This document shows positions 8,189 through 64,000 of a DNA stretch of 64,000 bases, piece by piece; position 1 is the stretch's first letter, and each line of letters starts with the position of its first letter. Source of the DNA: a bacterium (GTDB lineage: Bacteria; Zhuqueibacterota; QNDG01; JAGLOF01); the NCBI GenBank assembly GCA_016934955.1, contig JAFGRY010000031.1:70805-134804 (forward strand). The letters run 5' to 3'. Position numbers and translations under genes: made by a program. The notes below the pieces were generated by a model that worked only from the letters and a program-made list of their open reading frames with translations, was not told where the DNA came from and searched no databases.

Positions 8189-8381
8189 TACCGGGCCGCG
8201 CCTTTCATTAATAAAAACAGATAAACTCCCCGTTCCGCTGCTGATAAATTAGGTGCTTTTCGAGTGAAAGTCAACTCAATTGTGGATGCCGCTGGCATAA
8301 ACAGACTCTGAAAAACCTTGTTTACCAGCCTTTATTTGCGTATTTTTCCAGAGCATTCCCGCCGACGATCAAGGAACGACA

Positions 8382-11354: not shown

Positions 11355-12523
11355 TCCGGTCCCGCGCTGATTCCGGTCACCCGGCCATGACACTGACGGA
11401 AACGAAGGCGAGAACCGTTCTGCGGACCTACAGGACCCTGGACTCCTGGTTCATCAGCCGCTACGCCATGAATCTCTATCGAGGCTGCGCCCATAACTGC
11501 GCCTACTGCGACGGGCGGTATGAAGGGTACTATCTTCCCGGAATCTTCGGAGAGGACGTTACCGTCAAAATCAATGCCGCCGATGTTCTGAGAAGAGAAC
11601 TGGACCCGAGCCGCAGACGAACCCCGCTCACTCCCTGCTATCTCATGCTCGGAGGCGGCGTGGGCGACAGCTATCAGCCGGCCGAACGGACCCGCGGACT
11701 CACCCGGCAGGTCCTCGAGATCATGCTCGAGTACGGGCTTCCGGTGCATCTGCTCACAAAATCGGTCCTGGCCGCCCGGGACATGGATCTGCTGAGCCGC
11801 ATCAGCCGCTCGGCCGGGGTGCTGGTCACGGTCAGTTTCTCAACCCTGGACTCGGGCCTCAGCGCACTTTTCGAGCCGGGAGCATCCCCGCCCGAGGAGC
11901 GGATCGACCTTCTTGACCGGCTGAAAACAGCCTCCATTCCCTGCGGCATGGCGCTCATGCCGGTTATCCCCTTTCTCACCGATACGCCGGCCCACATCGA
12001 GACGGCGGTCCGGACCGCCGCGCACATGCGTCTCGATTACGTGCTCTTCTCCGGGATGACCCTGAAACCGGGCCGTCAGATGGAGCACTTTCTGAACCTG
12101 CTCGGCCGCCACTTTCCCGGGAAGATTGAAGAATATTACGCGATCTATCACGGCACCCGCAGGGGGGAAGCGTGCAGCGCGTACAGTGATCATATTCACT
12201 CGCTGTTCCGGGACGCCGTGACCCGCTACCGCATGCCCCCGCGCATACCCGCGCATCTGTTCAGCAGAGTGCTCACCCTCACCGACCTTGCCGCGGTCAT
12301 GCTCGATCAGATACATTACCTCTGCAGGCTCCACAACCGGCCCTCCTCCTTCGGCGCGGCGGCAAGGGCCGTCGCCGGTCTCCGGGAACCGCTGCCGACC
12401 CTGGCCGGACGGCTGCGAAGCATTAACGGTATCGGTCCCGTCACGGAAAAAGTGCTGTGTGAGATTCTGGAAAGCCGCACCAGCAGCTACTATCGCCGCC
12501 TGCTTTCCGCCCGTTTTTCCTGA
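11351..12523 (+). CDS. Radical SAM protein, SplB/COG1533-like, with C-terminal helix-hairpin-helix-like motif
   Basis: 'YRGCAHNCAYCDGRY' is a CX3CX2C cluster in the context typical of SplB-like radical SAM enzymes. C-terminal 'INGIGPVTEKVL'. ATG at 11351 overlaps the paralog C stop (ATGA); the alternative ATG is 11387. Confidence 0.75.
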   Translation: MIRSRADSGHPAMTLTETKARTVLRTYRTLDSWFISRYAMNLYRGCAHNCAYCDGRYEGYYLPGIFGEDVTVKINAADVLRRELDPSRRRTPLTPCYLMLGGGVGDSYQPAERTRGLTRQVLEIMLEYGLPVHLLTKSVLAARDMDLLSRISRSAGVLVTVSFSTLDSGLSALFEPGASPPEERIDLLDRLKTASIPCGMALMPVIPFLTDTPAHIETAVRTAAHMRLDYVLFSGMTLKPGRQMEHFLNLLGRHFPGKIEEYYAIYHGTRRGEACSAYSDHIHSLFRDAVTRYRMPPRIPAHLFSRVLTLTDLAAVMLDQIHYLCRLHNRPSSFGAAARAVAGLREPLPTLAGRLRSINGIGPVTEKVLCEILESRTSSYYRRLLSARFS

Positions 12524-12612
12524 CCGGAAAAAAGCATTGCTTTTCGGGCCCGGGTTCTCTATCTTATTGATTTATATGGGAACCTTACCACCGGCAAACG
12601 GGTAAAATAATA

Positions 12613-13344
12613 ATGAAATCGAGCTATTTCATTTCCGACATTCACCTGGGGACCGACACGGAGTATGCGTCACGGACCCGCCTGCGCCTGCTGCTGGATT
12701 TCTTTGCCGCGATCGAGAAGGATGCGGAGCATCTGTTCATTGTCGGTGATCTGTTCGATTTCTGGTTCGAGTATAAAAGCGTCATGCCCAAAGGACATTT
12801 TGATCTGCTCTACGCCCTGAAAAAAATGCGGGATGCGGGTACCGCCATTACCCTTCTTCGGGGAAACCACGATTTCTGGATCGCCGGTTTTTTTGAGGAT
12901 GAGCTGGGCATTCCTGTACACGACGATTTTCTCGATATCAGGCTGGGCGGCAAACGGTTCTACATCTCCCACGGCGATGGACTCGCCAAAGACGACAAAG
13001 GATATCGTTTTCTGAAAAAAATACTGCGCAATCCATTCAACATCCGGCTGTTCTCCCTGCTGCACCCTGATATTGGACACGCCCTTGCCACGTTTTCCTC
13101 CCGGCTGAGCCGTGATTACAGCCCCATACTGGACGACAGGGAGGACTATATGCAGTTCGCGAGGGAGATGTTCGGGCGGGACTATGACTGCGTGGTTCTG
13201 GGGCATACCCACGCCCCTGTGCTGCTCAGAGAGGCACATCATGTATACCTGAACACCGGAGACTGGATGAGCAGGTTCACCTACGGTAAATTCACCGACG
13301 GAAGACTTACCCTGGAGCACTGGCCGCTCCCGGAACAGCGGTAA
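12613..13344 (+). CDS. lpxH: UDP-2,3-diacylglucosamine hydrolase
   Basis: 'YFISDIHLG', 'GDLFDFW', 'GNHDFW', 'HGD', 'GHTH'; about 240 aa, typical LpxH layout. Confidence 0.8.
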   Translation: MKSSYFISDIHLGTDTEYASRTRLRLLLDFFAAIEKDAEHLFIVGDLFDFWFEYKSVMPKGHFDLLYALKKMRDAGTAITLLRGNHDFWIAGFFEDELGIPVHDDFLDIRLGGKRFYISHGDGLAKDDKGYRFLKKILRNPFNIRLFSLLHPDIGHALATFSSRLSRDYSPILDDREDYMQFAREMFGRDYDCVVLGHTHAPVLLREAHHVYLNTGDWMSRFTYGKFTDGRLTLEHWPLPEQR

Positions 13345-13375
13345 CGGTTTTCCCCGCATTGAAACAGGAACAGAT

Positions 13376-15586
13376 ATGAAACGGAATCGCAGAGAATACA
13401 CGATCAGAAAGGAACGAGAGATTTCCGGACCGGGGCTGCTGACACGCCGTCCCTGGCTGAAATATCCGCTTTTCATCATCGGGGGCATGACGCTGCTGGG
13501 CATCGTCTCACTGGTAATCCTCAGCCGGGATCTCCCTTCCCTCAGCGAACTTGAGCGCGCGGCCGACCCCAAGATGGTGACCCGTATCTATTCCGCGGAC
13601 GGACAGATACTCGATGAAATCAGCATCGAGAAACGGGTGCTCATTCCCATTGACCGTATACCGAAATACGTGCTGGACGCCACCATCGCGCTGGAGGACC
13701 GGAAGTTTTACCGCCACTGGGGACTCGATCTCCGCAGCATATTCAAATACACTGTTCTCAACATCGTCAACATGGACATCATCGGAGGGGGCAGTACTCT
13801 GACACAGCAGCTGGCGAAGAAGGTGTACCACAGTTCCCGCCAGACCCTGATCAGAAAAATCAGGGAAGGGCTCACCTCCCTGCAGATCGAACGAACCTAC
13901 TCCAAGACTGAAATTCTCGAAATGTACCTGAACAGGATGGAATTCGGCCGGGGCGCCTTCGGCATCCAGTCGGCGGCCAAAGCCTGGTTCGGGAAAAACA
14001 TCGAAGAGGTTACCATCGATCAGGCGGCCATGCTGGTGGGCATGATGCAGCTTCCCTACGGCTACTACTCGCCTGACCGTGACAGTGCGGCCGCGGTGGT
14101 GAGACGGAACGTGGTCATGGGGACGATGGTCGACATGGGCTATCTGGATCATGCGGCCTTCGACTCTCTCAAGACCCTGCCGCTGGAAGTCATCCCGAAA
14201 AACAGCGAAGAAAAGAAAATCGCCCCCTTCTTCTGCCAGTATGTAATCGATGAATTGAAAGAACAGTTCGGAGCAGGTCTCTGGACCGACGGATATTCCA
14301 TTTATACCACGCTGGACACCCGGGTACAGGCCTGCGCGGACAGTGCGATCAAAGGGTTCATTCCTGAACTGGAAGCAAAAATTCACGGCGAGATTCTGGA
14401 AAAGCGGTCATTTCTCAAATGGCTTCCAGACACACTGGAAACGGAGAAACAGATACTGGCATTCCTCGCCGATTCGGCCGCGGTCGACTCGCTGCTCACC
14501 AACCGGGCGACCCTTGAAACATCGCTCACCGCCATCGATCCGTCGAACGGCTACATCCTGGCCATGGTCGGCGGCCGGGAATGGGGGGATGGACCGGGCC
14601 AGACAAAATTCAATCACGCAACCCAGGCTGCCAGGCAGCCAGGTTCCTGTTTCAAGCCGCTCGCCTATACCGTATCGGTCGACAACGGATACCCGCCGTC
14701 TTCCCAGTTTCTCAACGTACCGCTGACCCTGGAGCTTCCCAACGGTGATGTCTGGCGGCCCCGCAACTATCAGGAAACAAGCGGCGGGCGCATCACCATG
14801 CGTGAAGGCCTTTACCGCTCACTCAACCTCATCTCCATCCGCATGGTGCAGAAACATCAGACGCAGCGGCAGATCGTGGAATACGCAAAGAACTTCGGCA
14901 TCACCACCCCTATCAGGCCCTATGCCAGTGTTGTCCTGGGTGCGGAAGTGGTGCATCCCATCGAGATGGTGTACGCCTTTGCCACCTTCGCGAACAGGGG
15001 TGTTCGCCAGAAGCCCATTGCCGTGCTGCGGGTCGAGGACAACCATGGAAACGTGGTGCTCGAATCGCACCCGGGCGGGCCGGAGGTCATCAGCCCCCAG
15101 ACCGCCTTCATCATGACCGACATGCTCCGCAGCGTGCTCGACGAACCCCGGGGCACCGGGCATGCGGCCCGCTGGAAATATAATTTCTACCGGCCCGCCG
15201 CCGGTAAAACCGGCACGACAAACGATTTCCGGGATGCCTGGTTCATCGGGTTCACTCCCCAGATCGCCTCGGCTGTCTGGGTCGGATTCGATGACGAACG
15301 GATCAAACTCGGGGAAGGCCAGTCGGGAAGCCAGACCGGACTGCCGGTGTGGGCACCCTTTATGCGCATGGCCCATGACACCCTTGAGCTGCCCCTGGCG
15401 GATTTTATCGAACCGCCGGGAATCGAGCATCACAGGATCTGCAAGGAGACGGGAAAACTCGCCCTCGACACCTGTCCCGACATTCAGGATGAAGTTTTCA
15501 TTGAAGGCACCGCGCCCATCGACACCTGCGATGTCCATGCCAATCCCTGGCAGTCACAGCGGGACACCAGGCGGCGCGTTTTTTAA
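13376..15586 (+). CDS. mrcA: Penicillin-binding protein 1A (bifunctional glycosyltransferase/transpeptidase)
   Basis: GT51 motifs 'ALEDRKFYRHWG' and 'GGSTLTQQLAK'; transpeptidase 'SCFKP' (SxxK), 'SLN', 'KTGTT'; N-terminal TM anchor. Confidence 0.9.
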   Translation: MKRNRREYTIRKEREISGPGLLTRRPWLKYPLFIIGGMTLLGIVSLVILSRDLPSLSELERAADPKMVTRIYSADGQILDEISIEKRVLIPIDRIPKYVLDATIALEDRKFYRHWGLDLRSIFKYTVLNIVNMDIIGGGSTLTQQLAKKVYHSSRQTLIRKIREGLTSLQIERTYSKTEILEMYLNRMEFGRGAFGIQSAAKAWFGKNIEEVTIDQAAMLVGMMQLPYGYYSPDRDSAAAVVRRNVVMGTMVDMGYLDHAAFDSLKTLPLEVIPKNSEEKKIAPFFCQYVIDELKEQFGAGLWTDGYSIYTTLDTRVQACADSAIKGFIPELEAKIHGEILEKRSFLKWLPDTLETEKQILAFLADSAAVDSLLTNRATLETSLTAIDPSNGYILAMVGGREWGDGPGQTKFNHATQAARQPGSCFKPLAYTVSVDNGYPPSSQFLNVPLTLELPNGDVWRPRNYQETSGGRITMREGLYRSLNLISIRMVQKHQTQRQIVEYAKNFGITTPIRPYASVVLGAEVVHPIEMVYAFATFANRGVRQKPIAVLRVEDNHGNVVLESHPGGPEVISPQTAFIMTDMLRSVLDEPRGTGHAARWKYNFYRPAAGKTGTTNDFRDAWFIGFTPQIASAVWVGFDDERIKLGEGQSGSQTGLPVWAPFMRMAHDTLELPLADFIEPPGIEHHRICKETGKLALDTCPDIQDEVFIEGTAPIDTCDVHANPWQSQRDTRRRVF

Positions 15587-33862: not shown

Positions 33863-34219
33863 TCAGTCATCGGAAAGGTCCTTCATGATCTCTTTTACCG
33901 CGTCTTTCTCCGACGCATAGATTTCCAGTATCGACTCCAGCCTTGCGATTCTGACCAGCGATTTCAGTTTTTCGCCCAGGCAGCAGAAGATAATTTCCTT
34001 GTCGTTCGCTTCGGCCTGCCTGATGCCGAAAAGAAGGGCCCCCAGACCGGTGCTGTCCATGTAGGCCACGCTGGCGAGATTGAGCAGCAGAATATCGCAA
34101 TCTTCAGTGAGCAGCTGCAAAAAAGTGGTTTTCATATCGGGCGCTTCCGTATGTGTCAGGTGATCGGACTCGACGCGTACGACACAGAAACCATCCTTCT
34201 TCTCCAATTGATACTTCAT
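33863..34219 (-). CDS. STAS-domain anti-sigma-factor antagonist (SpoIIAA-like)
   Basis: 'LLLNLASVAYMDSTGLGALL' with the conserved phospho-Ser position (DST GLG); about 118 aa. Confidence 0.8.
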   Translation of the reverse strand: MKYQLEKKDGFCVVRVESDHLTHTEAPDMKTTFLQLLTEDCDILLLNLASVAYMDSTGLGALLFGIRQAEANDKEIIFCCLGEKLKSLVRIARLESILEIYASEKDAVKEIMKDLSDD

Positions 34220-52082: not shown

Positions 52083-52118
52083 AAAAAGCCGGACGCCCCC
52101 ACGGGGCGTCCGGCTTTT
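52083..52118. terminator. Bidirectional rho-independent terminator
   Basis: A5, GCCGGACGCCCC (52088-99), cac, GGGGCGTCCGGC (52103-14), T4, between convergent genes. Confidence 0.8.
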
Positions 52119-52160
52119 CCATGTCCTTTCCCGCTCGAAAGGCACCAGGGGGCACGGCGG

Positions 52161-52706
52161 TCAATAGTAATTGTAATTCTCCACGTAGTAGACCTCAACC
52201 GGCACTTCCGTGGTTTCACCGGCCCGGCCCGCGGCGACCGCCTGCCCCAGGTAATTCACGATGCCCCGTTCTTCAAAGCCGATAATCAGCCAGTTCAGCC
52301 CTTCGATACCGCTGACCGTACCGCTGGCGGTGGAATCGGTGGCGATCCGAAGCTCCTGCTCGGAAAACAGCGAGACCGAATCCTGTTCAGTGAGAAAATG
52401 TTTCATCAGATCCCGGCTCATGGGCACCTGTTCAGTGGCCGCCGGCCCGTTGTAAATAAAATTGAAGTAGTTCTGGGCCGCTGTACTATTCTGAAAAACC
52501 GTCAGGCTGTCGTAGCGGGAAATATCGGCCACCAGCACCCAGACCAGGTCGGTCAGCTGCTGCTTGCCCATGGTTCCGTCAGCATCACGAAAGGTGACGT
52601 TGAGAACAAACCGGGGCGGCTGCCGCTCACTCTCGACCAGGCCGCAGGCCGTGGTAAAAAACAGCACGGCCAGAAACAAAAACAGAACGATCTTTAACGT
52701 GCTCAT
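52161..52706 (-). CDS. Hypothetical lipoprotein
   Basis: 'MSTLKIVLFLFLAVLFFTTACG' signal plus Cys. AGGA lies about 9 nt upstream of the ATG at 52706. Confidence 0.55.
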   Translation of the reverse strand: MSTLKIVLFLFLAVLFFTTACGLVESERQPPRFVLNVTFRDADGTMGKQQLTDLVWVLVADISRYDSLTVFQNSTAAQNYFNFIYNGPAATEQVPMSRDLMKHFLTEQDSVSLFSEQELRIATDSTASGTVSGIEGLNWLIIGFEERGIVNYLGQAVAAGRAGETTEVPVEVYYVENYNYY

Positions 52707-52734
52707 GGGAAATGAGTCCTCATGCAAATGTCAG

Positions 52735-53841
52735 TTAAAACGATGTCTGCAGTCCGGCGCTGCCGCTGAATCCCGAAAGACTGACCCGGCCGCCCATGGT
52801 CTGGTAGGTGCCGACGCCGAAAGCGAGCTCGCCGCTGAAGAGCAGGCCCGGAGCGATCTCAGCCTCCACACCGGCCCCGGGACCGAAAAGGGTGACGCCG
52901 CCGTAGCCGAAATCATTATCCGAATAGAGCTTGAGACGAAGAAGCGCGGTATATTTCACGCCCGGCCGCAGGGTGTACCAGGCGGCAGCCTGGAGATCCA
53001 GCTGGTTGCCGTTCCGGTTCAGCCGCTCGTAGGCGAGCACACCGGTTCCCGATATGGTTTTACTTTTCATTTTCATCCGTTCCCGGATAAAAAAGACAAT
53101 ATCCCAGGGATCCCGGTCGATCACCGAGAGCAGCTGCAGAAGGAGTGTGGAACCGGACTTAAACACCGGGTTGCCGCCCCAGGTGTCGTCAAAATAGAGT
53201 GAATAGAGGATATCGCCGTAAAAGCCGCCCCGGTTCACCCCGAGAGTGAAGGTCACTTCATCGCCGGGGACATACTGGATATCGGAGGTCGAGTAGGGGA
53301 CGAATCCGCCTTTTCTCAGGTAACTGATACCGCCTCCGAGCATCCAGTCTCCGGCCGCGAAGGCGCTGCTGAGGCCGGCCTGGGCATCGAATCCCTGCCC
53401 GTAACAGGGCACTTTAAAGCTGAATGTCTGCCGGCTGATCACGCTGGCCACCGCCCACTCATCCGGAGTGAGGCGGCTCTTTCCCGCGGGAAGATTGAGG
53501 CCGAACGTGAAGAGCAGTTTCTCATCGAGGAACAGGACATGCCCGCCGGCCTTGATGTCCGAAAGGCCGCTGAGGCTAAAGGAATTCCCCGCCACCAGGC
53601 GTGAAAGCGCGGGAGCGGTCATCAGATAGACCTGCAGGTTTTCATTGACCGGGTATTTCACGGAAAAGGGAACGGCGAACTCACTGACCCGGTCGTTTCC
53701 CGCCTTCCAGCCGGTAAAGGAGAGTTCCGCCCTGGCTGCCATGTCCGAGCGCAGCCGGTAGGCCTGCTGGGGCATCACCGCCGAAGGGGTGAACGCGAGA
53801 ATGAACAGCACCATGCATGCGGGGGTCGTACGGGCAATCAT
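52735..53841 (-). CDS. Putative outer-membrane beta-barrel protein
   Basis: N-terminal signal peptide, alternating Gly/aromatic beta-strand pattern, and a C-terminal '...GLQTSF' ending in Phe. Confidence 0.5.
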   Translation of the reverse strand: MIARTTPACMVLFILAFTPSAVMPQQAYRLRSDMAARAELSFTGWKAGNDRVSEFAVPFSVKYPVNENLQVYLMTAPALSRLVAGNSFSLSGLSDIKAGGHVLFLDEKLLFTFGLNLPAGKSRLTPDEWAVASVISRQTFSFKVPCYGQGFDAQAGLSSAFAAGDWMLGGGISYLRKGGFVPYSTSDIQYVPGDEVTFTLGVNRGGFYGDILYSLYFDDTWGGNPVFKSGSTLLLQLLSVIDRDPWDIVFFIRERMKMKSKTISGTGVLAYERLNRNGNQLDLQAAAWYTLRPGVKYTALLRLKLYSDNDFGYGGVTLFGPGAGVEAEIAPGLLFSGELAFGVGTYQTMGGRVSLSGFSGSAGLQTSF

Positions 53842-53864
53842 TGTCTTTCTCCTGTTTCAGCGGT

Positions 53865-55202
53865 CTACCAGTCGGGAAGCGTCACTTGAATTTCGATCAG
53901 GAGCCGGTTGACATCACCGAAATCTGTCGTGGTCTCCTCTTTGGTTGTTCGTCGCTCATCCACGCCGGGCAAAAACCTCTGGTTGAGCACATCGCCCACA
54001 TGCTGCAGGTGTGCCCGCCTGGGGTCACCGGGCCGCGGGCTCCGACCTCCGGGAGGTACCGGAGCCGTCTCCGGAAGAGAAGGCAGGCCGACACCTCCCT
54101 TTTCCATTATCCGGGTGCGGGACAGGGACTGCGCCACTTTCGTGAAGCCCGGATCCAGCCTCAGGGCGTTGTCGTAATACCTGCCGGCCATCTCGTAATT
54201 TCCCGCATCCTCGTAGTCCATCCCCTGACAGTAGGCGATGAAGGCAAGGACATTTTCAGTGGGCAGTCTGCTGATCGCGTCCCGCTCTTCCAGGGAAAGA
54301 GTGATCCCCATCTCTTCGATGAGCCCCAGCACCAGTTTTTTCTCGAGGGCGAACAGATCATCTATTCTGCCCGCAATACTTCTGCTGACCGCATAGGAAC
54401 CCTCCTTCACCGCAAAGACTCCGGCATCGATGCGCAGGCTCTGGCCCGAAAGATCGACAAATCCTCCCTGGACGACCCGGGAAACACCCAGCAGCCTGCC
54501 CATTCTGGGCGCGGTACCGGCATCGGTCATACCCGTCATGGAGAGTTTCATTTCATCCATCATCGCCTGCAGCCGGGCCCGCTCGATCACCTCGAGCCCG
54601 CGCACATGGGAAAGATCGGTGATGAGCATGTCGGTGAGCCCTTTCTGCAGGGGGTCGAGTTTCCGCTTGTCTCCGAGGTTCCCGAAATAGAGCACCGCCA
54701 CCGCGGAATCGGAAACGGAAGCCGCGTCGAGCATCGATTCCTGGGCCAGTGAGCGCCGGGATTCAGTTATTAATTTCTTTCGCAGCAGGTCGGTGAGTTT
54801 CGCCTCGATCTCCGTGCGGGCCGAGGCGAGGCGGCTGATATCCCGGTATCTGCGGTAGACGCCGATCGCCTTGTCATACTGCTCCAGTCCCTCATACGCG
54901 GATCCAAGGAAGAGCAGGGTGCGTCCGTCGGTGGAATCAGCGGTAAACGCTTTCAGCAGGATCTGCCTGGCCGCGTCGAACCGTCCCCTGTTGTAGTAGA
55001 TGACACCCAGTTCCCGTACGGCCTTCGCGGCCGATTCACCATTCCGGATGCAGTCCGCAAAGGCGCGCACGGCCGCGCCCTCGTTCCCCTGTTGAAGATA
55101 GCGGACTCCCGTCGCGTAGCGCGAGGAGGCGCATCCGGCCAGGACGATAATGGGCAGCAGCCGGCAGAGGAAACGGGCACCTGCCGGAAAATAGTTTTTC
55201 AT
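53865..55202 (-). CDS. Lipoprotein with N-terminal TPR repeats and a CsgG/TolB-N-like (COG1462/COG5616-type) domain
   Basis: Lipobox 'IVLAGC', TPR-like helices, then 'VAVLYFGNLGDKRKLDPLQKGLTDMLITDLSHVRGLEVIERARLQAMMDE'. ATG at 55202. Confidence 0.55.
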   Translation of the reverse strand: MKNYFPAGARFLCRLLPIIVLAGCASSRYATGVRYLQQGNEGAAVRAFADCIRNGESAAKAVRELGVIYYNRGRFDAARQILLKAFTADSTDGRTLLFLGSAYEGLEQYDKAIGVYRRYRDISRLASARTEIEAKLTDLLRKKLITESRRSLAQESMLDAASVSDSAVAVLYFGNLGDKRKLDPLQKGLTDMLITDLSHVRGLEVIERARLQAMMDEMKLSMTGMTDAGTAPRMGRLLGVSRVVQGGFVDLSGQSLRIDAGVFAVKEGSYAVSRSIAGRIDDLFALEKKLVLGLIEEMGITLSLEERDAISRLPTENVLAFIAYCQGMDYEDAGNYEMAGRYYDNALRLDPGFTKVAQSLSRTRIMEKGGVGLPSLPETAPVPPGGRSPRPGDPRRAHLQHVGDVLNQRFLPGVDERRTTKEETTTDFGDVNRLLIEIQVTLPDW

Positions 55203-55212
55203 GTGAATTCCC

Positions 55213-56313
55213 CTAAAATTGCACCAGAAAGCGTGACCCGTGAGGGGTATTGTCCTCGAGGGTGATTGTCCCGCCATGGGCTTCAACCGCCAGCTTGCAG
55301 AACGCGAGACCGAGACCGATCTGCCTCATCCCCTGATTCTCGTTTTCGATCACCTTGAACTTGTCGAATACGGCTTCCCGATACTCCTCGGGGATGCCGG
55401 GGCCCTGGTCCTCAACCGCGAACAGCACACCGCCGCCGCCGCGGCTGCTGTCCACGGCTCTGGCGGCCCTGACCACGATCTCGCTGTCATCATCGGTGTA
55501 CTTGATCGCGTTGGAAACCAGGTTGTTAAGCACTTTGAGCGCGAGATTCCCGTCGGCGAAGAGAGCGGGAACATCGCCGGGGATATCTCCTCTGAGAGTG
55601 ATATTCCTGACTTCAGCCAGCACGGCATGATTTCTGATCACCTTATCGACCAGGTCGGGCACGGGAATCTCTCCCCGGTTGATGATAAGCTTTTCCGATT
55701 CCATTTTCGCCATCAGGAGCAGATCGGAGAGATAGAGGTTGATCCGTTTCGCCTCTTTCCTGATTTTTTCCACATCTTCCAGATCACGGGGATCGCTCAG
55801 ATTTCTGCGCAGAAAATCGCTGTACCCGAGAATGGCGCAGATCGGACTGCGCATATCATGAACAACCATATTCGCCAGCTCCTCACGCAGCGTCAGAATG
55901 TTCTGCAGGGTGTCGTACTGGCTTTTAATCCGCAGCATGGAGCGGACACGCGCCCTCAGCTCGATGCCGCTGACCGGCTTTGAAAGAAAATCGTCGGCGC
56001 CCGCCAGGAGCCCGCGGCGCAGATCCTCCTTGCTGTCCAGCGCGGTCACAAGGATAATCGGTATGTGCTGCCACAATTTGTTCTCCTTGATGATCCGGCA
56101 CAGTTCCATACCATCCATGCCGGGCATCATCATGTCGAGCAGGAGCAGATCCGGAGAAGGGTCGGCCCGTTCCATCAGCTCAAGGGCGTTCTCCGCATTC
56201 TCGGCAAAGAGCAGCCTGTAGTCTTCAGACGCGAGAAGCGCCTCCAGGGTCGAACGGGCGCTTGCCTCATCGTCGACGATCAGAATCGTATTGCCCTGTT
56301 TCAGTTCTTTCAG
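55213..56313 (-). CDS. Receiver-histidine kinase fusion (REC + HisKA + HATPase_c); probable CTG start
   Basis: The first ATG (56175) falls inside the receiver domain. The in-frame upstream sequence encodes 'KELKQGNTILIVDDEASARSTLEALL...' back to a CTG at 56313, preceded by GGAGG plus a 6-nt spacer. H-box 'HDMRSPICAILGY'; 'NLVSNAIKYT', 'DQGPGIP', 'GLGLAF'. Confidence 0.7.
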   Translation of the reverse strand: MKELKQGNTILIVDDEASARSTLEALLASEDYRLLFAENAENALELMERADPSPDLLLLDMMMPGMDGMELCRIIKENKLWQHIPIILVTALDSKEDLRRGLLAGADDFLSKPVSGIELRARVRSMLRIKSQYDTLQNILTLREELANMVVHDMRSPICAILGYSDFLRRNLSDPRDLEDVEKIRKEAKRINLYLSDLLLMAKMESEKLIINRGEIPVPDLVDKVIRNHAVLAEVRNITLRGDIPGDVPALFADGNLALKVLNNLVSNAIKYTDDDSEIVVRAARAVDSSRGGGGVLFAVEDQGPGIPEEYREAVFDKFKVIENENQGMRQIGLGLAFCKLAVEAHGGTITLEDNTPHGSRFLVQF

Positions 56314-58313
56314 TGATCACCTCCCGAATTCAGATACGACACGATCAGTGCAAGGAGCGATTGCAGCCGAACCGGCTTGCTCAGGTACTCGTTTGCCCCC
56401 GCACCGATACAACGGTCCCTGTCACCGGGCATCGCCAGGGCGCTGATCGCGATGACCGGCACCTTCTTGTATTCGGATCCGGAGCGTATCCTGCGAATCG
56501 CCTCCAGGCCGTCCATGCCCGGCATTTGAATATCCATGAGGATGAGCCGGATCCCGGGATTGAGGGCCGCGACGGCTTCCAGTCCGTTTCTGGCGACAGT
56601 GACGGTGAATCCTTTTTTGCTCAGATAATCCCGTATGGTCATTATATTCTGTTCATTGTCTTCGGCCAGCAGAATGTGACCGGCGGCGGAGGGACCGGCA
56701 TCGGACTTCCCCGCCGTTGTTCCGTCGTCCCTCTGGGATTGATCCGTGGGCGTTTCCGGATCGATGAAGGGGATCGATACGGTGAAGGTGCTTCCCCTGC
56801 CCTGTTCGCTGACCAGGGAAATGCCGCCGCCGTGCAGCTCCGTCAGCCTCCGGACCAGGGCGAGCCCCAGCCCGGTGCCCGCGTGAGCGCGGGACAGGCG
56901 CGAATCGAGCTGCTCGAAAGGCCGGAACAGCCGCTGCATATCCTCGGGGGCGATGCCGATTCCGGTGTCCCTGACGGCGAAATTCAGGGTGGTCCGCTCA
57001 TCGTCGCTGTCGACCGACAAATCGATTCTGCCGCCTTCAGGAGTGAATTTCACCGCGTTGGAAAGCAGGTTGACCAGGATCTGCTTTAGCCGCCGTTCAT
57101 CGGCAAGAAAGGTGGTAATGGTATCCTGAATATGGGAATGAATCTGTATCTGCTTCTTGACCGCGTTCTGCCTGACCATGGCGATACTGCTGGCGATAAC
57201 GCCGTTGATGTCTACGGGGATACGTTCGAATTCCAGTTTCCCCGCCTCTATCTTGGAAATATCGAGAATATCGTTTATGAGAGAGAGCAGATGGCGCCCG
57301 CTGTCCTGGATGATCTGAAGCGACCGGTACTGTTTTGAATTGATATCACCGTAGACATTTTCCTGCAGCGCTTCGGACATGCCCAGAATTGCATTGAGGG
57401 GTGTTCTCAGTTCATGGCTCATGTTTGCCAGAAATTCGTCTTTCAACCGTACCGCCCTGGCCAGTTCCGCATTGGCCAGGCTCAGTTCCTGGGTTCGTTC
57501 ATCCACCCGCCTGGCCAGCGAGGCGCGTTCTTCTTCCAGATCGGCCTCGACCTGTCTGCGCTGGGTGATATCACGAAAGACCAGCACGACTCCCAGAATG
57601 GCGTTATTCTCATTCCTGATCGGGGCCAGATTGACTTCAATGGGAATCTGTCTCCCGGAAGGCACCGATAAGAAGATATCATCCCTGGCGGTGAACTGCT
57701 CACCCTTGAGCACCTCCTCGAACACCTTGGCAAGCTGATACCGGCCCTCCGCGAGGACGGCATTGAACACATCGAAGACCGGTTTTCCCACCGCCCTGCT
57801 CTCTTTCCATTCCGAGAGATCGGCCGCAACCGGATTGATAAACGATATGCGGCTTTCAAGATCGGTGGCGATCACGCCGTCTCCGATACTTTCCAGTATG
57901 GTTGACAGCCACGCCTTGCGTTCCCGCAGCTCTGCATCCATGCGGTTCTTGTAGAGAGCCGTCTCGATAACCACATAGAGCTCTTCATCGATGAACGGTT
58001 TGATGATATACCCGGAGGGCTGGCTGTCCTTCACCCGCCTGAGCGTCTGCTGGTCGGCATGGGATGTCAGATAGACAATAGGAATATCATGCCTGGACTT
58101 GATGAGCTCGGCTGTCTGGATGCCGTCGAGATCTCCGTGCAGAATGATATCCATGAGGATGAGATCGGGCAGCGACTGCTCAAGGATGTCCACCGCTTTC
58201 TGTCCCGAATCCACGATGTCATGCACCCGGTAGCCCAGATCCTGGAGCCTGGTCTTGATGTCTTCGGCAACCAGCCTCTCATCCTCGACGACAAGAACTG
58301 ATGTATCACTCAT
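56310..58313 (-). CDS. Hybrid sensor histidine kinase (REC-PAS-HisKA-HATPase_c-REC)
   Basis: 'VLVVEDE...LILMDIIL', PAS 'LSTILESIGDGVIATD', H-box 'SHELRTPLNAILG', 'NLLSNAVKFT', 'DTGIGI', 'GTGLGL', C-terminal 'ILLAEDN...LILMDIQMPGMDG'. Confidence 0.9.
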   Translation of the reverse strand: MSDTSVLVVEDERLVAEDIKTRLQDLGYRVHDIVDSGQKAVDILEQSLPDLILMDIILHGDLDGIQTAELIKSRHDIPIVYLTSHADQQTLRRVKDSQPSGYIIKPFIDEELYVVIETALYKNRMDAELRERKAWLSTILESIGDGVIATDLESRISFINPVAADLSEWKESRAVGKPVFDVFNAVLAEGRYQLAKVFEEVLKGEQFTARDDIFLSVPSGRQIPIEVNLAPIRNENNAILGVVLVFRDITQRRQVEADLEEERASLARRVDERTQELSLANAELARAVRLKDEFLANMSHELRTPLNAILGMSEALQENVYGDINSKQYRSLQIIQDSGRHLLSLINDILDISKIEAGKLEFERIPVDINGVIASSIAMVRQNAVKKQIQIHSHIQDTITTFLADERRLKQILVNLLSNAVKFTPEGGRIDLSVDSDDERTTLNFAVRDTGIGIAPEDMQRLFRPFEQLDSRLSRAHAGTGLGLALVRRLTELHGGGISLVSEQGRGSTFTVSIPFIDPETPTDQSQRDDGTTAGKSDAGPSAAGHILLAEDNEQNIMTIRDYLSKKGFTVTVARNGLEAVAALNPGIRLILMDIQMPGMDGLEAIRRIRSGSEYKKVPVIAISALAMPGDRDRCIGAGANEYLSKPVRLQSLLALIVSYLNSGGDH

Positions 58314-58488
58314 ACGGAAAACCTGTCATTGGAGGAATCCGTACCTGGTGCAGGCAGCGGACACCTCTGCATGGCGAAACGTCGGCGCCCCCGGGTTCCG
58401 TCTTCAACCGGAGGCCGATGAATACGTTCGGTATGGAATGAATTAAAATAGCGAATTAGAATACAAAAATCAAGTACCCGCGGCGGTT

Positions 58489-61029
58489 TTAGCGTTCCCG
58501 CCCCTCTGCCGGGGAAAGAAAGACAATGTCTTTCAGGCCGTCCCCGCTCTTGTCTGTAACCCTGAAATAGTATCCCCAGGGCCCGTATATATTGCAGACC
58601 TTGACGAGGACGAAGTTAAGCCCCTTCTCCAGATGCACGTTGATGATATCATTGTCAAATATCGAGTCCCGAAAAATATTGTTCTTCCACACCGCCCTGC
58701 CGTTGAGGAACACTTTCACCGCTTCATTGGAGCCCAGCCGGAACTGGGCCTCGGTGGCGCGCGAGGCCTTGATCACCGTCATGCCGTACGCGACCGACCA
58801 CCCGCTTTCGGGAAACCGTTTCTGCAGATCGATATACCCTTCGCGGCAGTCGTCGGACCGGACCAGCCAGGGCACAGTGCCCCGGCCGGGCCGCACTGTT
58901 TCCGGAGAGAACGTCTTGTTGAATCCGTTGCGGTTGTCGTAGGGTCCGGCGAACAGCCATCGTTCCTCTTCCGGCACGCCGCAGCGCTGCAGCTGCTTAC
59001 GCGCCTTGTCCTCCTCACCGATTTTGTAGTACAGATCTGCAAGATATGTCCTGAAAACCATCTCCGATCGCTGCAGCTCCTTTTTTTGACAAAAATCGAT
59101 GGCGGAGCGATATTCGTCGATGTACGGACCCGGATTGTCCCGGGCGAACTCATTGTAATATCGATAGATCGACCAGCCGCGGTAATTGATCGGAAGATCC
59201 TCGGTCCTGTCAAGGAGGGTGAGAAATTCGCTGAAAAAGGGCCGGAGCGGTTCACCGTGCTCCTCCCAGAGACCCGCCCGCATGCAGAGTATGGCCGGAA
59301 GAAAACGGCCGGTGACGGCGAGATAGTCCGGTTTGTTCTCGAGCATGTCGAGGACAGCCGCTGCTGTTTCATCGAGCCGAACCCCGTAATCGAGAGAGAT
59401 CCTGATCAGCAGGTTGAGGGCAATCGGCACCGTTCCGGCCATACGCATGACCTCATCATACTGGCGCTCCCAGTATGCCCGCCTCGTCGCAGCATCATTC
59501 ACTTTCGGATCGATCTCCTCCCTCAGCAGCTGTACCTCCAGGAGGTTGTCATTGTACTCGGCCAGCTTTTCGAGGCTGGAAAGAGCCAGGGCATAGTCGC
59601 CGAGCCGCCACTGCAGGAGGGCTATCTGGCGGTAGGCGGCCGCTTTGTTCGCCCTGTCGCTGACCAGCGGCAGAAATCGCTGGAGATAGATGTCGAGCGC
59701 ATTCTCATAATCTCCGCGGGCGATATCGACCTGGGCCAGACCGGCAAGGGAGTAACTGAAACTGCTGTCCCTGGCAAGCGATGCACGGTAAAAGTCTTCG
59801 GCCTTGTTCAGGGTGCCTTCCCGCAGAAAAATTTCCGCGTTGCTGTCATAAGGGTTCGGCTCGTCCGGCTCCATGACCCGGTACCGGTCGAGGATGGCGT
59901 GGGCGTCCTGAAAATTGCCCTGCTCAGCGAAAATATATCCAAGTATGTTGTACGCCGCGGCGTACGTGGGATCGAGGGAAAGGATGCGCTTGTAATACCG
60001 TACCGCCTCATCCCGCTTGTGCAGGCTCCAGAAAATGTTGCCGATATTCTGAATGGGATCGATATCGTTCGGATATTCCTCGAGCCATGCCTGCGACACT
60101 TCCATTGTCCTGCCCGGATCACCGTCAAGACGCGATTTGAAGACATCGATCTCATATTTTTCCCGGAGTGACGCCTGGTCACGCAGCGCCATCAGTTTCG
60201 ACATCCAGCGCGCGCTGTTGTCATTGTCTCTCCTGGTGATGGATATCCTCAGCAGGCTGATGTAGGCGAGTACGAAATTCGAATCGATTTCAACGGCCTT
60301 CCTGAGGCTCTCATAGGCCGCACTCTGCCTGAAACGGTTGATCAGCTGGACGCCGTTCACGTAGTGCTGCCACGCTTCGATGGAGGGAGATTCCTCGCTC
60401 AGGGAAAGGTGACGGGATTGACTCTGGGTATCGTCAAAGGAAAGTGTCAGCTCCTCTTTCATGACTCCCGAGAGATGATCGACCATGGAAAAAAGCTGCT
60501 CCAGCCCCGCTCCCTCGGCTGTTTCCTCACGAAGAACGGTGCCGCTGTCGGCTTCGTGCAGCTGTACGGTGATACAGAGTGAATCTCCCGTTTTTGTGAT
60601 GTTGCCGCTGAGATAGGCCTCGAGATTCGCCTTTCTGGCAAAGACAGCGGCCATATCCATGTCGATATCCCTGGCGGTTGAATCGCCTCCGAGACGTTCC
60701 GTCAGCTCATACAGCCGTTCCGTACCAAGCACCGACAACCGCTGAGACTGGGAGAGGCTTCTCACGAACATCTCGGTCAGCCCCTGCTGAAGCCAGTCGA
60801 GATCGTAATCACCGGTGCGGTTTTGGAAAAAAAACACGGCGACGGCCCTTCGGCTGGCGGGTTCGAGATAGATGGAAGTGGAGGTGTCGGCCGTGGCCGG
60901 CTGGACGCTCTCCCCCCCCGAGAGCCGTATTCTGCGCTGATCATTATCAGGGGCGCAGGAGAACAGCGCCGGCAGAAGGACACCCGCGACGATCACTCTC
61001 ACAGCGAGGGTATTATGACCTGGACTCAT
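58489..61029 (-). CDS. Large TPR lipoprotein (paralog B): TolB-N/CsgG-like N-domain + TPR array + C-terminal beta-sandwich-like domain
   Basis: Lipobox 'ALFSC'; 'VAVFFFQNRTGDYDLDWLQQGLTEMFVRSLSQSQRLSVLGTERL'; many TPR-like repeats; C-terminal 'WLFAGPYDNRNGF...VKVCNIYGPWGYYFRVTD'. Confidence 0.6.
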   Translation of the reverse strand: MSPGHNTLAVRVIVAGVLLPALFSCAPDNDQRRIRLSGGESVQPATADTSTSIYLEPASRRAVAVFFFQNRTGDYDLDWLQQGLTEMFVRSLSQSQRLSVLGTERLYELTERLGGDSTARDIDMDMAAVFARKANLEAYLSGNITKTGDSLCITVQLHEADSGTVLREETAEGAGLEQLFSMVDHLSGVMKEELTLSFDDTQSQSRHLSLSEESPSIEAWQHYVNGVQLINRFRQSAAYESLRKAVEIDSNFVLAYISLLRISITRRDNDNSARWMSKLMALRDQASLREKYEIDVFKSRLDGDPGRTMEVSQAWLEEYPNDIDPIQNIGNIFWSLHKRDEAVRYYKRILSLDPTYAAAYNILGYIFAEQGNFQDAHAILDRYRVMEPDEPNPYDSNAEIFLREGTLNKAEDFYRASLARDSSFSYSLAGLAQVDIARGDYENALDIYLQRFLPLVSDRANKAAAYRQIALLQWRLGDYALALSSLEKLAEYNDNLLEVQLLREEIDPKVNDAATRRAYWERQYDEVMRMAGTVPIALNLLIRISLDYGVRLDETAAAVLDMLENKPDYLAVTGRFLPAILCMRAGLWEEHGEPLRPFFSEFLTLLDRTEDLPINYRGWSIYRYYNEFARDNPGPYIDEYRSAIDFCQKKELQRSEMVFRTYLADLYYKIGEEDKARKQLQRCGVPEEERWLFAGPYDNRNGFNKTFSPETVRPGRGTVPWLVRSDDCREGYIDLQKRFPESGWSVAYGMTVIKASRATEAQFRLGSNEAVKVFLNGRAVWKNNIFRDSIFDNDIINVHLEKGLNFVLVKVCNIYGPWGYYFRVTDKSGDGLKDIVFLSPAEGRER

Positions 61030-63599
61030 AACGGCACCCTGTATCGTATATGGGGAGCGCCCCGTCCATCACTGTCGGTGATCCGGAAATAGACACCCCA
61101 GGCACCGTAATCGTTGCTTGTTTTCATGAGGATCGTATTGATCCCGGGCACCAGGTGCGCATCGATACAGACCTCATCGATCACCGCGTTTCTATCCACA
61201 TTAATTTTCCAGATCTCTTTATTGTTGAGGTAGAGGCGCTGGGGTCCCGTGGCTCCGGTCCGCAGCTGCACATCCTGTTCAATGTCCGACTCGACAAACA
61301 GCAGGGTATAGGCTGCCGACCAGTTCCGATCGGGATACCACGCACTGAAATCGAGATAGCCGTCATGAAACGCATCGGCGAACGGCTTCCAGACATCCCC
61401 CTGTTCGGCATACCCCTCCCAGGCTGCTGCCGTTACATCGATATCGTTATAGGTGAACCCCTGGCGGTCAGCATACGGACCGGCTGTGAGCCATGCCTGC
61501 TCCGGCGGAATTCCGCAGATGGCCAGCTCCCCGGAGGCGGCCGATGGCTTCCCGGTACGGAAATACAGATCTGCACGAAACGACCTCAGCAGCATTTCCA
61601 TTTTCAGCAAACCCTGCTTCCGGCAGCGGTCGATCATCCGCGCATACACGGCAAACACCGTATCAGGCGCGGTGCTGAACTGATCGTTGAGATAGAGACA
61701 GCTTTCCCAGAACCGGCTGATGTAAACGGGTCCCCCGGTCCGGACGATGGTCTCCAGCACATCTTCCAGTACCCGGCCGCTGCGTGCGGCATCGCCGGGT
61801 CCGGGCCGATACCGGTGGGACAGTATCTCCGGCAACAGCCGCTCCGGGCCCTTCACCAGATCACTGTAATCGTGCTCCGCCAGATAGGCGGCGGTTTCAG
61901 GGCCCTTGATATCGAGATAGACGCCCAGTCTGAGCAGCAGGGACAGGGCCGGCTCGCTGTAGGCGGCGGCCGCGGTCAGAATATCATACTGCTGCGCCCA
62001 GTACTGCCCGGCATCGAAGCCGGGATCCCGGTCCGTGCGGATACGGGCGATCTGAATCATCGATTCATACAGTACCTGGGCAAAGGCCTTCAGTTTCTGG
62101 AAAGAGGCTTCCGCCATGTCATAGTCGCCTTTTCTCCAGCAGGTCAGTCCGATCTGCCGCAGAAGATCGGCTTTGCTGTTTCGGTCGGGCGTGTAATCGA
62201 AGCACTCGAAGAAGATCTTCCTCGCTTCTTCATACCGGCCCTGGTCAGCCTGCAGCCGCCCCAGCGCGATCCGGGAGCTGAGAAAATTCGCATTCTTCAT
62301 CAGGGAAATGGAATAGAACTTTTCCGCCTTCCGGTAGTTGCCCTGGTACGCCGCTATTTCTCCGGCACTGTCCCAGGTGTTCGATTCCTCCGGGTATCGC
62401 TCCCTGATCAGCACCTCATAACGGGCGGCCCGTTCAAAGTCCCCCATCCGCGCGTGGACGTAGGCGAGGAATGTATTCACCACTTTATTGAAGGGATCGA
62501 TCTCAAGCACGTTGTTGAAATACGCGGCGGCGAGGTTCCACTCGGACCAGCTGTAATAGATATTGGCGAGATTGATGTTGGGATCGATATCGCCGGGATA
62601 GGCTTCGTACCATTGCCGGGAGATATCCATGATCCGCGCCTGATCGTTGGTCGCCTGGGCTTCCAGAATATCGATCTGGTAGCGTTCCCGCAGCGAGGCC
62701 GAATCACGCAGGCTCAGCACTTTCCGGTATGTCTCGTAGGCCTCGGCATCTTCCCCCAGAGAGAGCAGCAGGGGCGAAAGCCGCAGGTAGACATCGATAT
62801 AGGTCGAATCCTCCCCGAGAGCGGCCCGGAATTCATTCACCGCATCCTGGCGAAGGTACTGGTTGGCGTAATTGACCCCCGCGATATAGTGTTTGAGCGC
62901 CTCCAGCGACCGGGTAGCCGGCTGAATGATCCGTTCTTCATCCTCCGCGCCCTGGGCCAGGGTCTGCTGCAGATTGTCCCGTATGGTCCCGGACAGGTCG
63001 TCGACCATCGCGAAGATATGTTCGAGTCCCACCGCAGCCGCGGATTCTTCCTGGATGAGTTTACCGTGGGCCGCTTCATGCAGGTGCACCGTGATGCGAA
63101 GCGAATCGCCCGTTCGGCTGATGTCTCCCCGCAGAAACGCCTCCACATTCGCCTCCTTGGCGAAACGGATTGCGTTCTCCAGTTCCAGTTCAGCGGAGTC
63201 GGTTTCGCCTCCCAGCCGGGTCAGCACATCATAAAACCGTTCCGTGCTCATCACCGAGATACGCTGCGACTGGGCCAGGGCCCGGATGAACATCTCGGCC
63301 AGTCCCTGCCTGAGCCATTCCAGCCGGGGGTCACCGGTACGGTTGTCGAAAATCATGACCGCGATCGCCCGGCGCAGCGCCGGCTGAAGATAGAGAAGAG
63401 ACGCGGGCTGTTCACTGATCCTGGCCGCGGGGCCGGTGGAAGAGAGTCGTATCTTTCTCTTTTCTCCGTTGCCGCCGCAGTGCAGGCTGAGAACCAGCAC
63501 CCCCAGGGCGGCGGCCGCGACCGCCAGCCGGCCCGGCGTCACGCGCGCTGCATGTTTAAACGGTGCACCATCCATATTGGTTTTATCCCTGCGAACCAT
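61026..63599 (-). CDS. Large TPR protein (paralog A) with the same architecture as 58489-61029
   Basis: 'IAVMIFDNRTGDPRLEWLRQGLAEMFIRALAQSQRISVMSTERF', TPR array, 'WLTAGPYADRQGF...MKTSNDYGAWGVYFRITD'. ATGA overlap with the downstream paralog. The signal/lipobox 'LSLHCG' is atypical. Confidence 0.6.
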   Translation of the reverse strand: MVRRDKTNMDGAPFKHAARVTPGRLAVAAAALGVLVLSLHCGGNGEKRKIRLSSTGPAARISEQPASLLYLQPALRRAIAVMIFDNRTGDPRLEWLRQGLAEMFIRALAQSQRISVMSTERFYDVLTRLGGETDSAELELENAIRFAKEANVEAFLRGDISRTGDSLRITVHLHEAAHGKLIQEESAAAVGLEHIFAMVDDLSGTIRDNLQQTLAQGAEDEERIIQPATRSLEALKHYIAGVNYANQYLRQDAVNEFRAALGEDSTYIDVYLRLSPLLLSLGEDAEAYETYRKVLSLRDSASLRERYQIDILEAQATNDQARIMDISRQWYEAYPGDIDPNINLANIYYSWSEWNLAAAYFNNVLEIDPFNKVVNTFLAYVHARMGDFERAARYEVLIRERYPEESNTWDSAGEIAAYQGNYRKAEKFYSISLMKNANFLSSRIALGRLQADQGRYEEARKIFFECFDYTPDRNSKADLLRQIGLTCWRKGDYDMAEASFQKLKAFAQVLYESMIQIARIRTDRDPGFDAGQYWAQQYDILTAAAAYSEPALSLLLRLGVYLDIKGPETAAYLAEHDYSDLVKGPERLLPEILSHRYRPGPGDAARSGRVLEDVLETIVRTGGPVYISRFWESCLYLNDQFSTAPDTVFAVYARMIDRCRKQGLLKMEMLLRSFRADLYFRTGKPSAASGELAICGIPPEQAWLTAGPYADRQGFTYNDIDVTAAAWEGYAEQGDVWKPFADAFHDGYLDFSAWYPDRNWSAAYTLLFVESDIEQDVQLRTGATGPQRLYLNNKEIWKINVDRNAVIDEVCIDAHLVPGINTILMKTSNDYGAWGVYFRITDSDGRGAPHIRYRVPL

Positions 63600-63614
63600 G
63601 CCAGCCGTGAACGG

Positions 63615-64000
63615 TCATGCGCATGCTTTCAGCACAATGACCGTCATGTCGTCGTGCTGGGGCGCCGCTCCCGTGAATCCGTTTACGTCCCCGATTATTT
63701 TTTCCCGCAGCTCGACGGCCCCCAGGTCCCGGCAGCCGTCGGGATAGGTTTCCAGCCGCTGCTCGCTGAAAACGTCTTTAGCGGCGTTCATCGCTTCGGA
63801 GATACCGTCGGTGTAAAAGATAAACACATCGTCTTTTTCAAAGGAGATCGCCTTCTCGCGGATCACATCGGCGAAGAGACCGTCTTCCGCAAGCCCGATG
63901 CCGAGTCCGGCCGGCGTCAGCGATTCAGTGCGGCCGTTCTTCGCATCGAAGTAGATGAGCGCATTGTGACCCGCCCGTGCATAGCGAAGCCGTTTTTTCT
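63615..64000 (-). CDS. PP2C/SpoIIE-type serine phosphatase, C-terminal part (5' end outside window)
   Basis: My hand translation shows the frame open to the window edge: '...RAGHNALIYFDAKNGRTESLTPAGLGIGL...DDVFIFYTDGISEAMN...APQHDDMTVIVLK', matching SpoIIE-domain C-terminal motifs. Confidence 0.75.
   Translation of the reverse strand, partial: KKRLRYARAGHNALIYFDAKNGRTESLTPAGLGIGLAEDGLFADVIREKAISFEKDDVFIFYTDGISEAMNAAKDVFSEQRLETYPDGCRDLGAVELREKIIGDVNGFTGAAPQHDDMTVIVLKACA

Follow-up and report, generated by a model that had tools for sequence, protein, structure and literature searches.

A string of eight genes, G1 to G8, all on the minus strand and about 12 kb in length, closes the stretch of DNA analysed here (the window: 64,000 nucleotides (nt), positions 70,805 to 134,804 of contig JAFGRY010000031.1, assembly GCA_016934955.1). 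The source genome, 4.4 Mb in 52 contigs, belongs to candidate division KSB1 (Zhuqueibacterota). A sequence-only reading of the window had taken the string for a single operon dedicated to envelope sensing or assembly. Comparison with other genomes leads us to consider it probable that the string instead sets side by side, in a lineage-specific manner, envelope modules that are conserved independently of each other: a putative split sensor made of a membrane phosphatase and two giant lipoproteins (module A, G1-G3), and a putative outer-membrane complex (module B, G6-G8).

In the order of reading, the string begins with G1 (63615-65618), which encodes a PP2C/SpoIIE phosphatase of 667 residues; its 3' part (63615-64000) lies in the window, the gene extends 1.6 kb beyond it, and the full protein was read from the contig (L004:2420-4423). 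There follow the genes for two giant lipoproteins, G2 (61026-63599; 857 residues) and G3 (58489-61029; 846 residues); a spacer of 175 nt (58314-58488); the genes for two histidine kinases, G4 (56310-58313) and G5 (55213-56313); and those for a lipoprotein with tetratricopeptide repeats (TPRs) and a CsgG-like domain, G6 (53865-55202; 445 residues), a predicted outer-membrane beta-barrel, G7 (52735-53841; 368 residues), and a lipoprotein, G8 (52161-52727; 188 residues). The gene and domain calls of the sequence-only reading agree with the listing of open reading frames (ORFs) and with Pfam and NCBIfam searches, and its placement of the proteins in the envelope held. From G1 to G8 the gaps are 15, -4 (ATGA overlap), 175, -4 (CTGA overlap), 10, 23 and 7 nt; the earlier spacings are thus reproduced except that the gap given as 22 nt is 23, and that the 28 nt given for G7-G8 applies only if G8 begins at the ATG at 52706, the gap otherwise being 7 nt. 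The string ends, as had been proposed, at a strong bidirectional intrinsic terminator (52083-52119), a 17-bp stem with 11 G-C pairs flanked by A and T runs and situated between convergent genes; the remaining matches in the terminator scan were at chance level (8 found, 10.1 expected).

Conservation was followed by probing 41 related genomes and a species-representative collection with the giant lipoprotein, and the ORFs at each locus fetched were scored for similarity to the eight proteins of the window. All-against-all clustering of the neighbours at 68 loci placed the giant in 67 and a PP2C phosphatase in 42, the next family occurring in only 6; no third gene recurs near the pair. In about 40 of the roughly 44 loci with enough upstream DNA, the gene immediately ahead of the giant, or of tandem giants, is that of the phosphatase. 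These pair loci come from KSB1, from the more distantly related Calditrichota and from other metagenome-assembled genomes, and the same pair is present on four metagenome contigs. Homologues of G4-G8 were not found in the PP2C/giant loci fetched from elsewhere. The first 200 residues of G1, comprising its first transmembrane segment (TM1), periplasmic domain and second segment (TM2), and the full-length giant occur in an identical set of 19 of the 41 related genomes; the hypergeometric chance of such a perfect 19/22 split is about 4e-12, a figure that is no true probability since the genomes are related.

Module B has a distribution of its own. Homologues of G7, found in 35 of the 41 relatives, lie on different contigs from the PP2C/giant pair. 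G6 and G7 are adjacent in 17 other fetched loci, again always on contigs separate from those of the pair; in 13 of these 17, BLAST detects a G8-like lipoprotein ORF downstream of the barrel. The genes upstream of the trio differ from genome to genome (PAP2, radical SAM, MtaB, SUI1), with two exceptions: in one other genome (G020) a SpoIIE protein and a histidine-kinase-like protein precede the G6-G7 pair, and in G001 and G002, two genomes from the family to which the window belongs, orthologues of G4-G5, at 51-56% identity, lie ahead of G6-G8. Neither G001 nor G002 has a full-length giant or the PP2C sensor domain. Conservation of the whole gene set had been named beforehand by the sequence-only reading as a point on which its proposal could fail, and the full set of eight was found in no other genome examined (41 relatives, 75 public loci); only sub-modules are conserved. 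Because the eight genes are not conserved together and their sub-modules recur alone, we regard the string as two or three units side by side, not as one dedicated phosphorelay-plus-phosphatase machine. What survives of the single-system proposal is the envelope character of the parts and their tight spacing; what does not is their unity, the sub-modules being inherited separately and G001 and G002 keeping G4-G8 without G1-G3.

The phosphatase of module A is built, in order, of TM1, a conserved periplasmic domain of about 140 residues (~45-185), TM2, a HAMP domain, a GAF-like region and the PP2C domain. Its match to SpoIIE (PF07228) covers profile positions 1-190 of 192 with 147 bits against a cut-off of 25; HAMP scores 55.7 bits, and GAF_2, at 22.1 bits, is below its cut-off. 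Alignment of 20 orthologues revealed as many invariant positions in the periplasmic domain as in the catalytic domain, the latter including G460, G461, D462, Y463, D465, A479, D480, V481, G483, G485, T603, D604, G605, D656 and D657. The PP2C aspartate motifs (GGDYxD, ADVSGxG, TDG and DD), which bind metal in this family, are all intact. The genome holds about 15 SpoIIE-type phosphatases and 12 STAS ORFs, none of which adjoins the PP2C/giant pair. One STAS-domain ORF (33899-34210, minus strand; 53 bits to PF01740) lies in the window about 30 kb from the phosphatase gene, and as one among the 12 it is a candidate substrate of G1.

The two giants are paralogues, with 35% identity over their full length (E 5e-174), G2 being the divergent copy. 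One relative of G2, 71% identical, is found in the same gene order; giants elsewhere match G3 better than G2, making G3 the orthologue of the single-copy PP2C partner, and tandem expansion of the giant is recurrent, in several KSB1 loci. G2 comprises a signal peptide with its cysteine, a TolB-N/CsgG-like alpha/beta domain, a TPR solenoid in which Pfam matches TPRs, and a C-terminal beta-sandwich. The AlphaFold model of G3 (predicted local distance difference test, pLDDT, 80; predicted template-modelling score, pTM, 0.70) has the corresponding parts: a signal helix, a disordered linker (residues 23-60), the alpha/beta domain (61-195), some 13 helical hairpins (217-683) and the beta-sandwich (692-838). 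The lipobox cysteine, C25, is nearly invariant in 21 members of the giant family. Shortly after it, an R-x-I-x-L motif (consensus RKIRLS; R32, I34 and L36; G3 residues ~30-35, window 60925-60942) is invariant in the 21 orthologues; set within a variable linker of low model confidence, it looks like a docking peptide. At four KSB1 loci (L042, L044, L056, L076) the phosphatase gene is followed by a giant-like paralogue of about 700 residues that matches only residues ~12-490 of G3, then by one or more full-length copies; these shorter paralogues may be without the C-terminal domain. Foldseek matches to the full giant model were all TPR proteins, profile searches of the PDB with the whole giant, with whole G6 and with a mixed CsgG-like alignment were uninformative, TPR matches swamping all else, and PADLOC found no relation to a defence system beyond a TPR match.

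The C-terminal beta-sandwich (G3 residues ~682-846, window 58492-58986) has no counterpart among the models of the Pfam copy searched. It is nonetheless widespread: 12,973 representative proteins match its profile at E <= 0.001, of which 6,441 reach E <= 1e-10 and 360 reach E <= 1e-30; in these proteins it is mostly C-terminal, sometimes repeated, and accompanied by TPR arrays, by Laminin_G_3 and in one case by GGDEF; in Poribacteria it is part of proteins of 900-3800 residues. Apart from these, the profile gave marginal matches only (pilus chaperones, E 0.09; GH2 beta-glucuronidases, E 0.5), and weak signals of the GH2_N, RhaB_D2 and PA14 types suggest a galactose-binding-like jelly-roll.

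That G2, G3 and G6 share an alpha/beta domain, as first seen in the sequence, is supported by BLASTP between G2 and G6 (E 1e-7 over about 200 residues) and by hhalign of the giants' N-domain (17 sequences) with the alpha/beta domain of the G6 family (18 sequences), which gave a probability of 99.3% and E 6.7e-21 over 132 columns. The CsgG/TolB-N-like character attributed to it, in combination with TPRs, was borne out: G6 matches Pfam CsgG (PF03783) with 36.7 bits against a cut-off of 20.8, over profile positions 32-101 of 210 only, while G3 reaches 14.1 bits with CsgG and shows faint similarity to Pfam LpoB (E 0.08). From these comparisons we classify the shared domain as a predicted periplasmic fold of the TolB-N/CsgG/LpoB type, and not as a CsgG channel; G6 was rejected as a true CsgG channel, the match omitting the channel-forming half including the transmembrane hairpin region. 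A clean profile of the alpha/beta domain, like one of the G7 barrel, found no solved relative by sequence.

Hundreds of Ser/Thr kinases, winged helix-turn-helix (wHTH) regulators and cyclases carry a C-terminal ectodomain homologous to the module that the N-domain and TPRs form in the giants, with E values of 1e-14 to 3e-29 and coverage of 31-59% of G2. In the three such proteins that were read (P0010, P0040, P0085) a single TM helix precedes the module. The cyclase family TIGR04510 matches the giant with 106 bits over positions 243-662, below the full-length cut-off of 400. Literature searches on TolB-like/TPR/kinase proteins and on COG5616 returned nothing relevant.

Since this module is elsewhere fused to kinase, wHTH and cyclase outputs, the giant lipoprotein is most likely an extracytoplasmic co-sensor of the G1 phosphatase. 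The relation would be of the fused-versus-split (Rosetta-stone) kind, three types of output being joined to the module by fusion and PP2C apparently forming a fourth, joined to it by adjacency. The lipoprotein or lipoproteins of about 850 residues, with their TolB-N/CsgG-like domain, TPR solenoid and jelly-roll, would contact G1 at the conserved periplasmic domain between its two TMs. By way of the HAMP and GAF-like regions this contact would reach the cytoplasmic PP2C domain, which would then remove the phosphate from a phospho-Ser/Thr protein encoded at another locus; a partner-switching protein of the STAS type is the most probable candidate. The output of G1 would thus probably be a partner-switching cascade.

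The giants might instead be structural or enzymatic-scaffold proteins of the envelope, activators of wall synthesis like LpoB and LpoA or docking platforms built of TPRs, whose abundance or assembly is regulated by the PP2C pathway, adjacency then reflecting co-regulation. Their lipobox, disordered linker of about 35 residues and TolB-N/LpoB-like globular domain would suit such a role, the N-terminal layout resembling that of LpoB; TPR solenoids are common scaffolds; and the jelly-roll, as its thousands of occurrences attest, is a widespread and mobile domain. However, the PP2C domain is cytoplasmic and the lipoprotein extracytoplasmic, so that the latter cannot be its direct substrate; repeated fusion of the N-domain and TPRs to signalling outputs, and the occurrence of the jelly-roll with GGDEF as well, are not what a scaffold leads one to expect; and strict co-occurrence with one particular periplasmic sensor domain better fits a receptor/co-receptor pair. 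We therefore think the scaffold explanation unlikely.

Under the rival proposal all eight genes constitute one envelope-signalling or assembly system, whose lipoprotein scaffolds and barrel would feed both a His-Asp phosphorelay (G4, G5) and a Ser/Thr phosphatase (G1). G4 is a hybrid kinase of REC-PAS-HisKA-HATPase_c-REC architecture and G5 a REC-HisKA-HATPase_c kinase; both are cytoplasmic and without a TM segment, and, as the sequence-only reading had remarked of a DNA-binding output, Pfam and NCBIfam detect neither a DNA-binding domain nor an HPt domain in either. The G001 orthologue of G4 (51% identical) lies ahead of orthologues of G5-G8, and the G5 orthologues of G001 and G002 (56% identical) directly upstream of those of G6. 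In the window G5 appears to begin at a CTG (56311-56313) that overlaps the TGA stop of G4 (56310-56312). The first ATG comes only after 46 codons of the receiver, which are bounded by TGA, a GGAGG stands 7 nt before the CTG, and the G001 orthologue begins at ATG in an equivalent ATGA overlap; the possibility of a frameshifted or truncated G5 was rejected, on account of the receiver codons and GGAGG, in favour of the CTG start. Because the kinases have no TM, HPt or DNA-binding domain and their link with the trio is limited to one family, direct reading of the lipoproteins by G4 and G5 is unlikely; co-expression with module B, in this family only, is likely and is the simplest explanation.

The 175-nt spacer, the only large gap, falls exactly between G1-G3 and G4-G8 and carries an AT-rich, promoter-like TTGATT-17-TATTTT. 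Its RNA shows no unusual structure (fold z-score -0.34), and alignment with the region upstream in G001 revealed no convincing conserved element. In favour of a single system are the common orientation and tight spacing of the genes with their two 4-nt overlaps, the failure of the scan to detect a terminator before that at 52083-52119, the homologous alpha/beta domain of G2/G3 and G6, and the SpoIIE-domain and kinase-like proteins ahead of G6-G7 in G020. These features are outweighed by the absence of the full set from every relative and public locus examined, by sub-modules that stand alone in dozens of genomes, by sister genomes with G4-G8 and no G1-G3, by kinases that, having no TM segment, could not read a periplasmic lipoprotein directly, and by the position of the largest gap, with its promoter-like element, at the module boundary; we hold a single system to be distinctly improbable.

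In module B, the second of the juxtaposed units, members of the G6 family (18-member alignment) begin with a perfect lipobox and three or four TPRs. The CsgG-like domain comes next and is itself followed by a single TPR, after which a low-complexity linker leads to a C-terminal motif. This motif, FLPGxDxRxPxQE...FG...(I/V)PLP (window 53865-53990), follows a linker of very variable length, about 20-100 residues, and the conserved tail could plug into or bind the barrel. That G7 is an outer-membrane barrel, as suspected from its sequence, is now supported by a structure model: the model is all-beta, with about 16-18 strands (pLDDT 84, pTM 0.78), the protein has a type I signal peptide and a C-terminal aromatic residue, and members of its family end in F, L or Y. 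The 50 best of 304 Foldseek matches at E <= 0.001 are all beta-barrel proteins, nearly all of them natural outer-membrane ones, and include among the matches listed FadL/TodX/CymD, general porins, FapF, the PelB barrel (TMq 0.50) and CymA. G7 has no Pfam or NCBIfam family, all its database relatives being named 'hypothetical', and none was found for G8 either. The G8 domain of about 170 residues is the N-terminal part of homologues of up to 720 residues that add PEGA, Big_2 or other beta-sandwiches.

The same genome has a paralogous locus (L129; G000:C47:93000-112000) with four genes, at 4485-5264, 5271-6698, 6713-14239 and 14275-15429, which encode in order a small CsgG-like protein, a G6-like TPR/CsgG-like lipoprotein, a protein of 2508 residues and a G7-like barrel. 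The 2508-residue protein contains Laminin_G_3, ASH and FlgD_ig domains and a C-terminal sorting domain of the type IX secretion system (T9SS). A homologue of SprA is encoded at G000:C29:34587-35903, and this, with the T9SS-tailed protein, makes it seem that the KSB1 genome has a type IX system. The position of its paralogue after the tailed protein is the only link of G7 with T9SS: G7 was rejected as a PorP/SprF or PorV protein, 16 members of the family giving no such Pfam hit at E <= 1 and NCBIfam none.

From these parts we envisage an outer-membrane complex in which the barrel of about 16-18 strands would have the TPR/CsgG-like lipoprotein as a scaffold beneath it and a variable beta-sandwich lipoprotein as its third component; with low confidence, judging from the domain architectures and the barrel model, module B might export or anchor a surface component. 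That G6-G7, with or without G8, works like PelB/PelC or CsgG/FapF as an export gate for an exopolysaccharide or amyloid polymer, and not as a device anchoring lipoproteins or adhesins, is hinted at by PelB and FapF among the G7 matches, by the combination of TPRs with a CsgG-family domain in G6 and by a weak BBP2_2 match in one G7 family member, and yet seems very improbable: genes for glycosyltransferases, synthases or amyloid subunits do not recur beside the trio at the loci read, the structural matches are generic, that to PelB being no better than those to porins, the Pfam match to CsgG leaves out the half that forms the channel, and the third partner is a beta-sandwich lipoprotein or, in the paralogous locus, a giant T9SS-tailed protein.

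Several observations weigh against the interpretation of the string as juxtaposed modules, or against the roles proposed for them. No terminator was detected by the scan in the 175-nt spacer, so that transcripts may read through from G3 into G4, which would mean co-transcription. The giant and the phosphatase are on separate contigs in two of the 19 genomes that have both (G015, G039). The genes next to the PP2C/giant pair include none for a STAS protein, a kinase or a sigma factor, and the substrate proposed for G1 is a guess. The indications of a jelly-roll ligand (GH2_N, PA14 and RhaB_D2 types) are weak, a glycan being a plausible candidate, and the structural matches to G7 have template-modelling scores of 0.4-0.5.

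Taken further, juxtaposed modules could amount to two undescribed devices, a split PP2C receptor that would span the envelope and be widespread in KSB1 and Calditrichota, and a three-part outer-membrane machine, a joint reading that we offer tentatively. In the receptor, the RKIRLS/TolB-N-like end would dock, and the TPR solenoid and glycan-binding-like jelly-roll would read ligands and so gate the PP2C domain, allowing information on the envelope or on extracellular glycans to enter a partner-switching network. In the machine, the barrel, the TPR/CsgG-like lipoprotein and a cargo-like beta-sandwich lipoprotein would display or export surface proteins, one paralogue perhaps serving the adhesin-like, T9SS-tailed protein of 2508 residues.

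Partner-switching phosphatases of the PP2C class are abundant in bacteria of the Fibrobacteres-Chlorobi-Bacteroidetes (FCB) group, some 15 in this genome, and the input they sense is almost never known; the co-inherited lipoprotein is a concrete candidate for the input device of one of them, and a likely role is thereby assigned to the large, unannotated class of 'TolB-like + TPR' ectodomains. Besides the outer-membrane trio, conserved in uncultured phyla, three unannotated families or domains are defined, namely the lipoprotein of about 850 residues, its C-terminal jelly-roll and the G7 barrel family. The case also illustrates how tight spacing alone can make unrelated modules resemble a single operon.

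Two further features lie at the upstream end of the string. A gene of the EamA type is situated upstream of G1 and divergent from it. On the plus strand, antisense to G2 and G1, a frame of about 1140 codons is open from window position 61050 to 64000 and on to L004:3433; because the sense genes have strong homologues, this frame most likely codes for nothing and merely reflects codon composition.

Among known systems the giants are closest to Ser/Thr kinases, CadC-like wHTH regulators and adenylate cyclases that bear a C-terminal ectodomain of the COG5616/TIGR04510 type, with which they share a homologous, extracytoplasmic combination of alpha/beta domain and TPRs. They differ in that the module is a free lipoprotein to which a helical extension and a jelly-roll are added, and in that the output, PP2C, is a separate neighbouring gene. 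In the principle proposed for them they resemble the lipoprotein co-sensors of NlpE-CpxA, RcsF-IgaA and QseG-QseE, in which an outer-membrane lipoprotein reports the state of the envelope to an inner-membrane signalling protein encoded nearby, and LpoB-PBP1B, in which a lipoprotein reaches across. Apart from the LpoB/TolB-N-like fold class there is no relation in sequence between these proteins and the giants, whose partner is moreover a PP2C phosphatase and not a histidine kinase.

G1 for its part resembles SiaA of Pseudomonas aeruginosa and other membrane HAMP-PP2C phosphatases of the SpoIIE/RsbU type in having two TMs around a periplasmic domain, followed by HAMP and PP2C; SiaA dephosphorylates a small phospho-Thr partner protein (PMC7647112). 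Membership of G1 in the SiaA system was rejected: its score with the NCBIfam SiaA model (56.9 bits, confined to the HAMP region) is far under the cut-off of 700, and no siaB-, siaC- or siaD-like genes lie beside it, its sole recurrent neighbour being the giant lipoprotein. G1 has in addition its own family-specific periplasmic domain, a GAF-like insert and this partner of about 850 residues.

For module B the nearest architectural analogue is PelBC, in which a 16-strand barrel is combined with a scaffold of TPRs and with 12 lipoproteins arranged in a ring (PMC12141448). As in PelB/PelC and CsgG, a lipoprotein whose fold is of the CsgG/TolB-N type is combined in the trio with TPR elements and a barrel in the outer membrane. 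The TPRs of the trio, however, are fused to the lipoprotein instead of the barrel, the trio includes a further conserved lipoprotein, its surroundings contain no genes of the Pel or curli systems, and G6 is without the channel-forming half of CsgG. What is new, then, is the strict coupling of a PP2C phosphatase with a lipoprotein as a putative sensor pair, and an outer-membrane trio without previous annotation; each is a variant, in uncultured phyla, of a kind of system already known.

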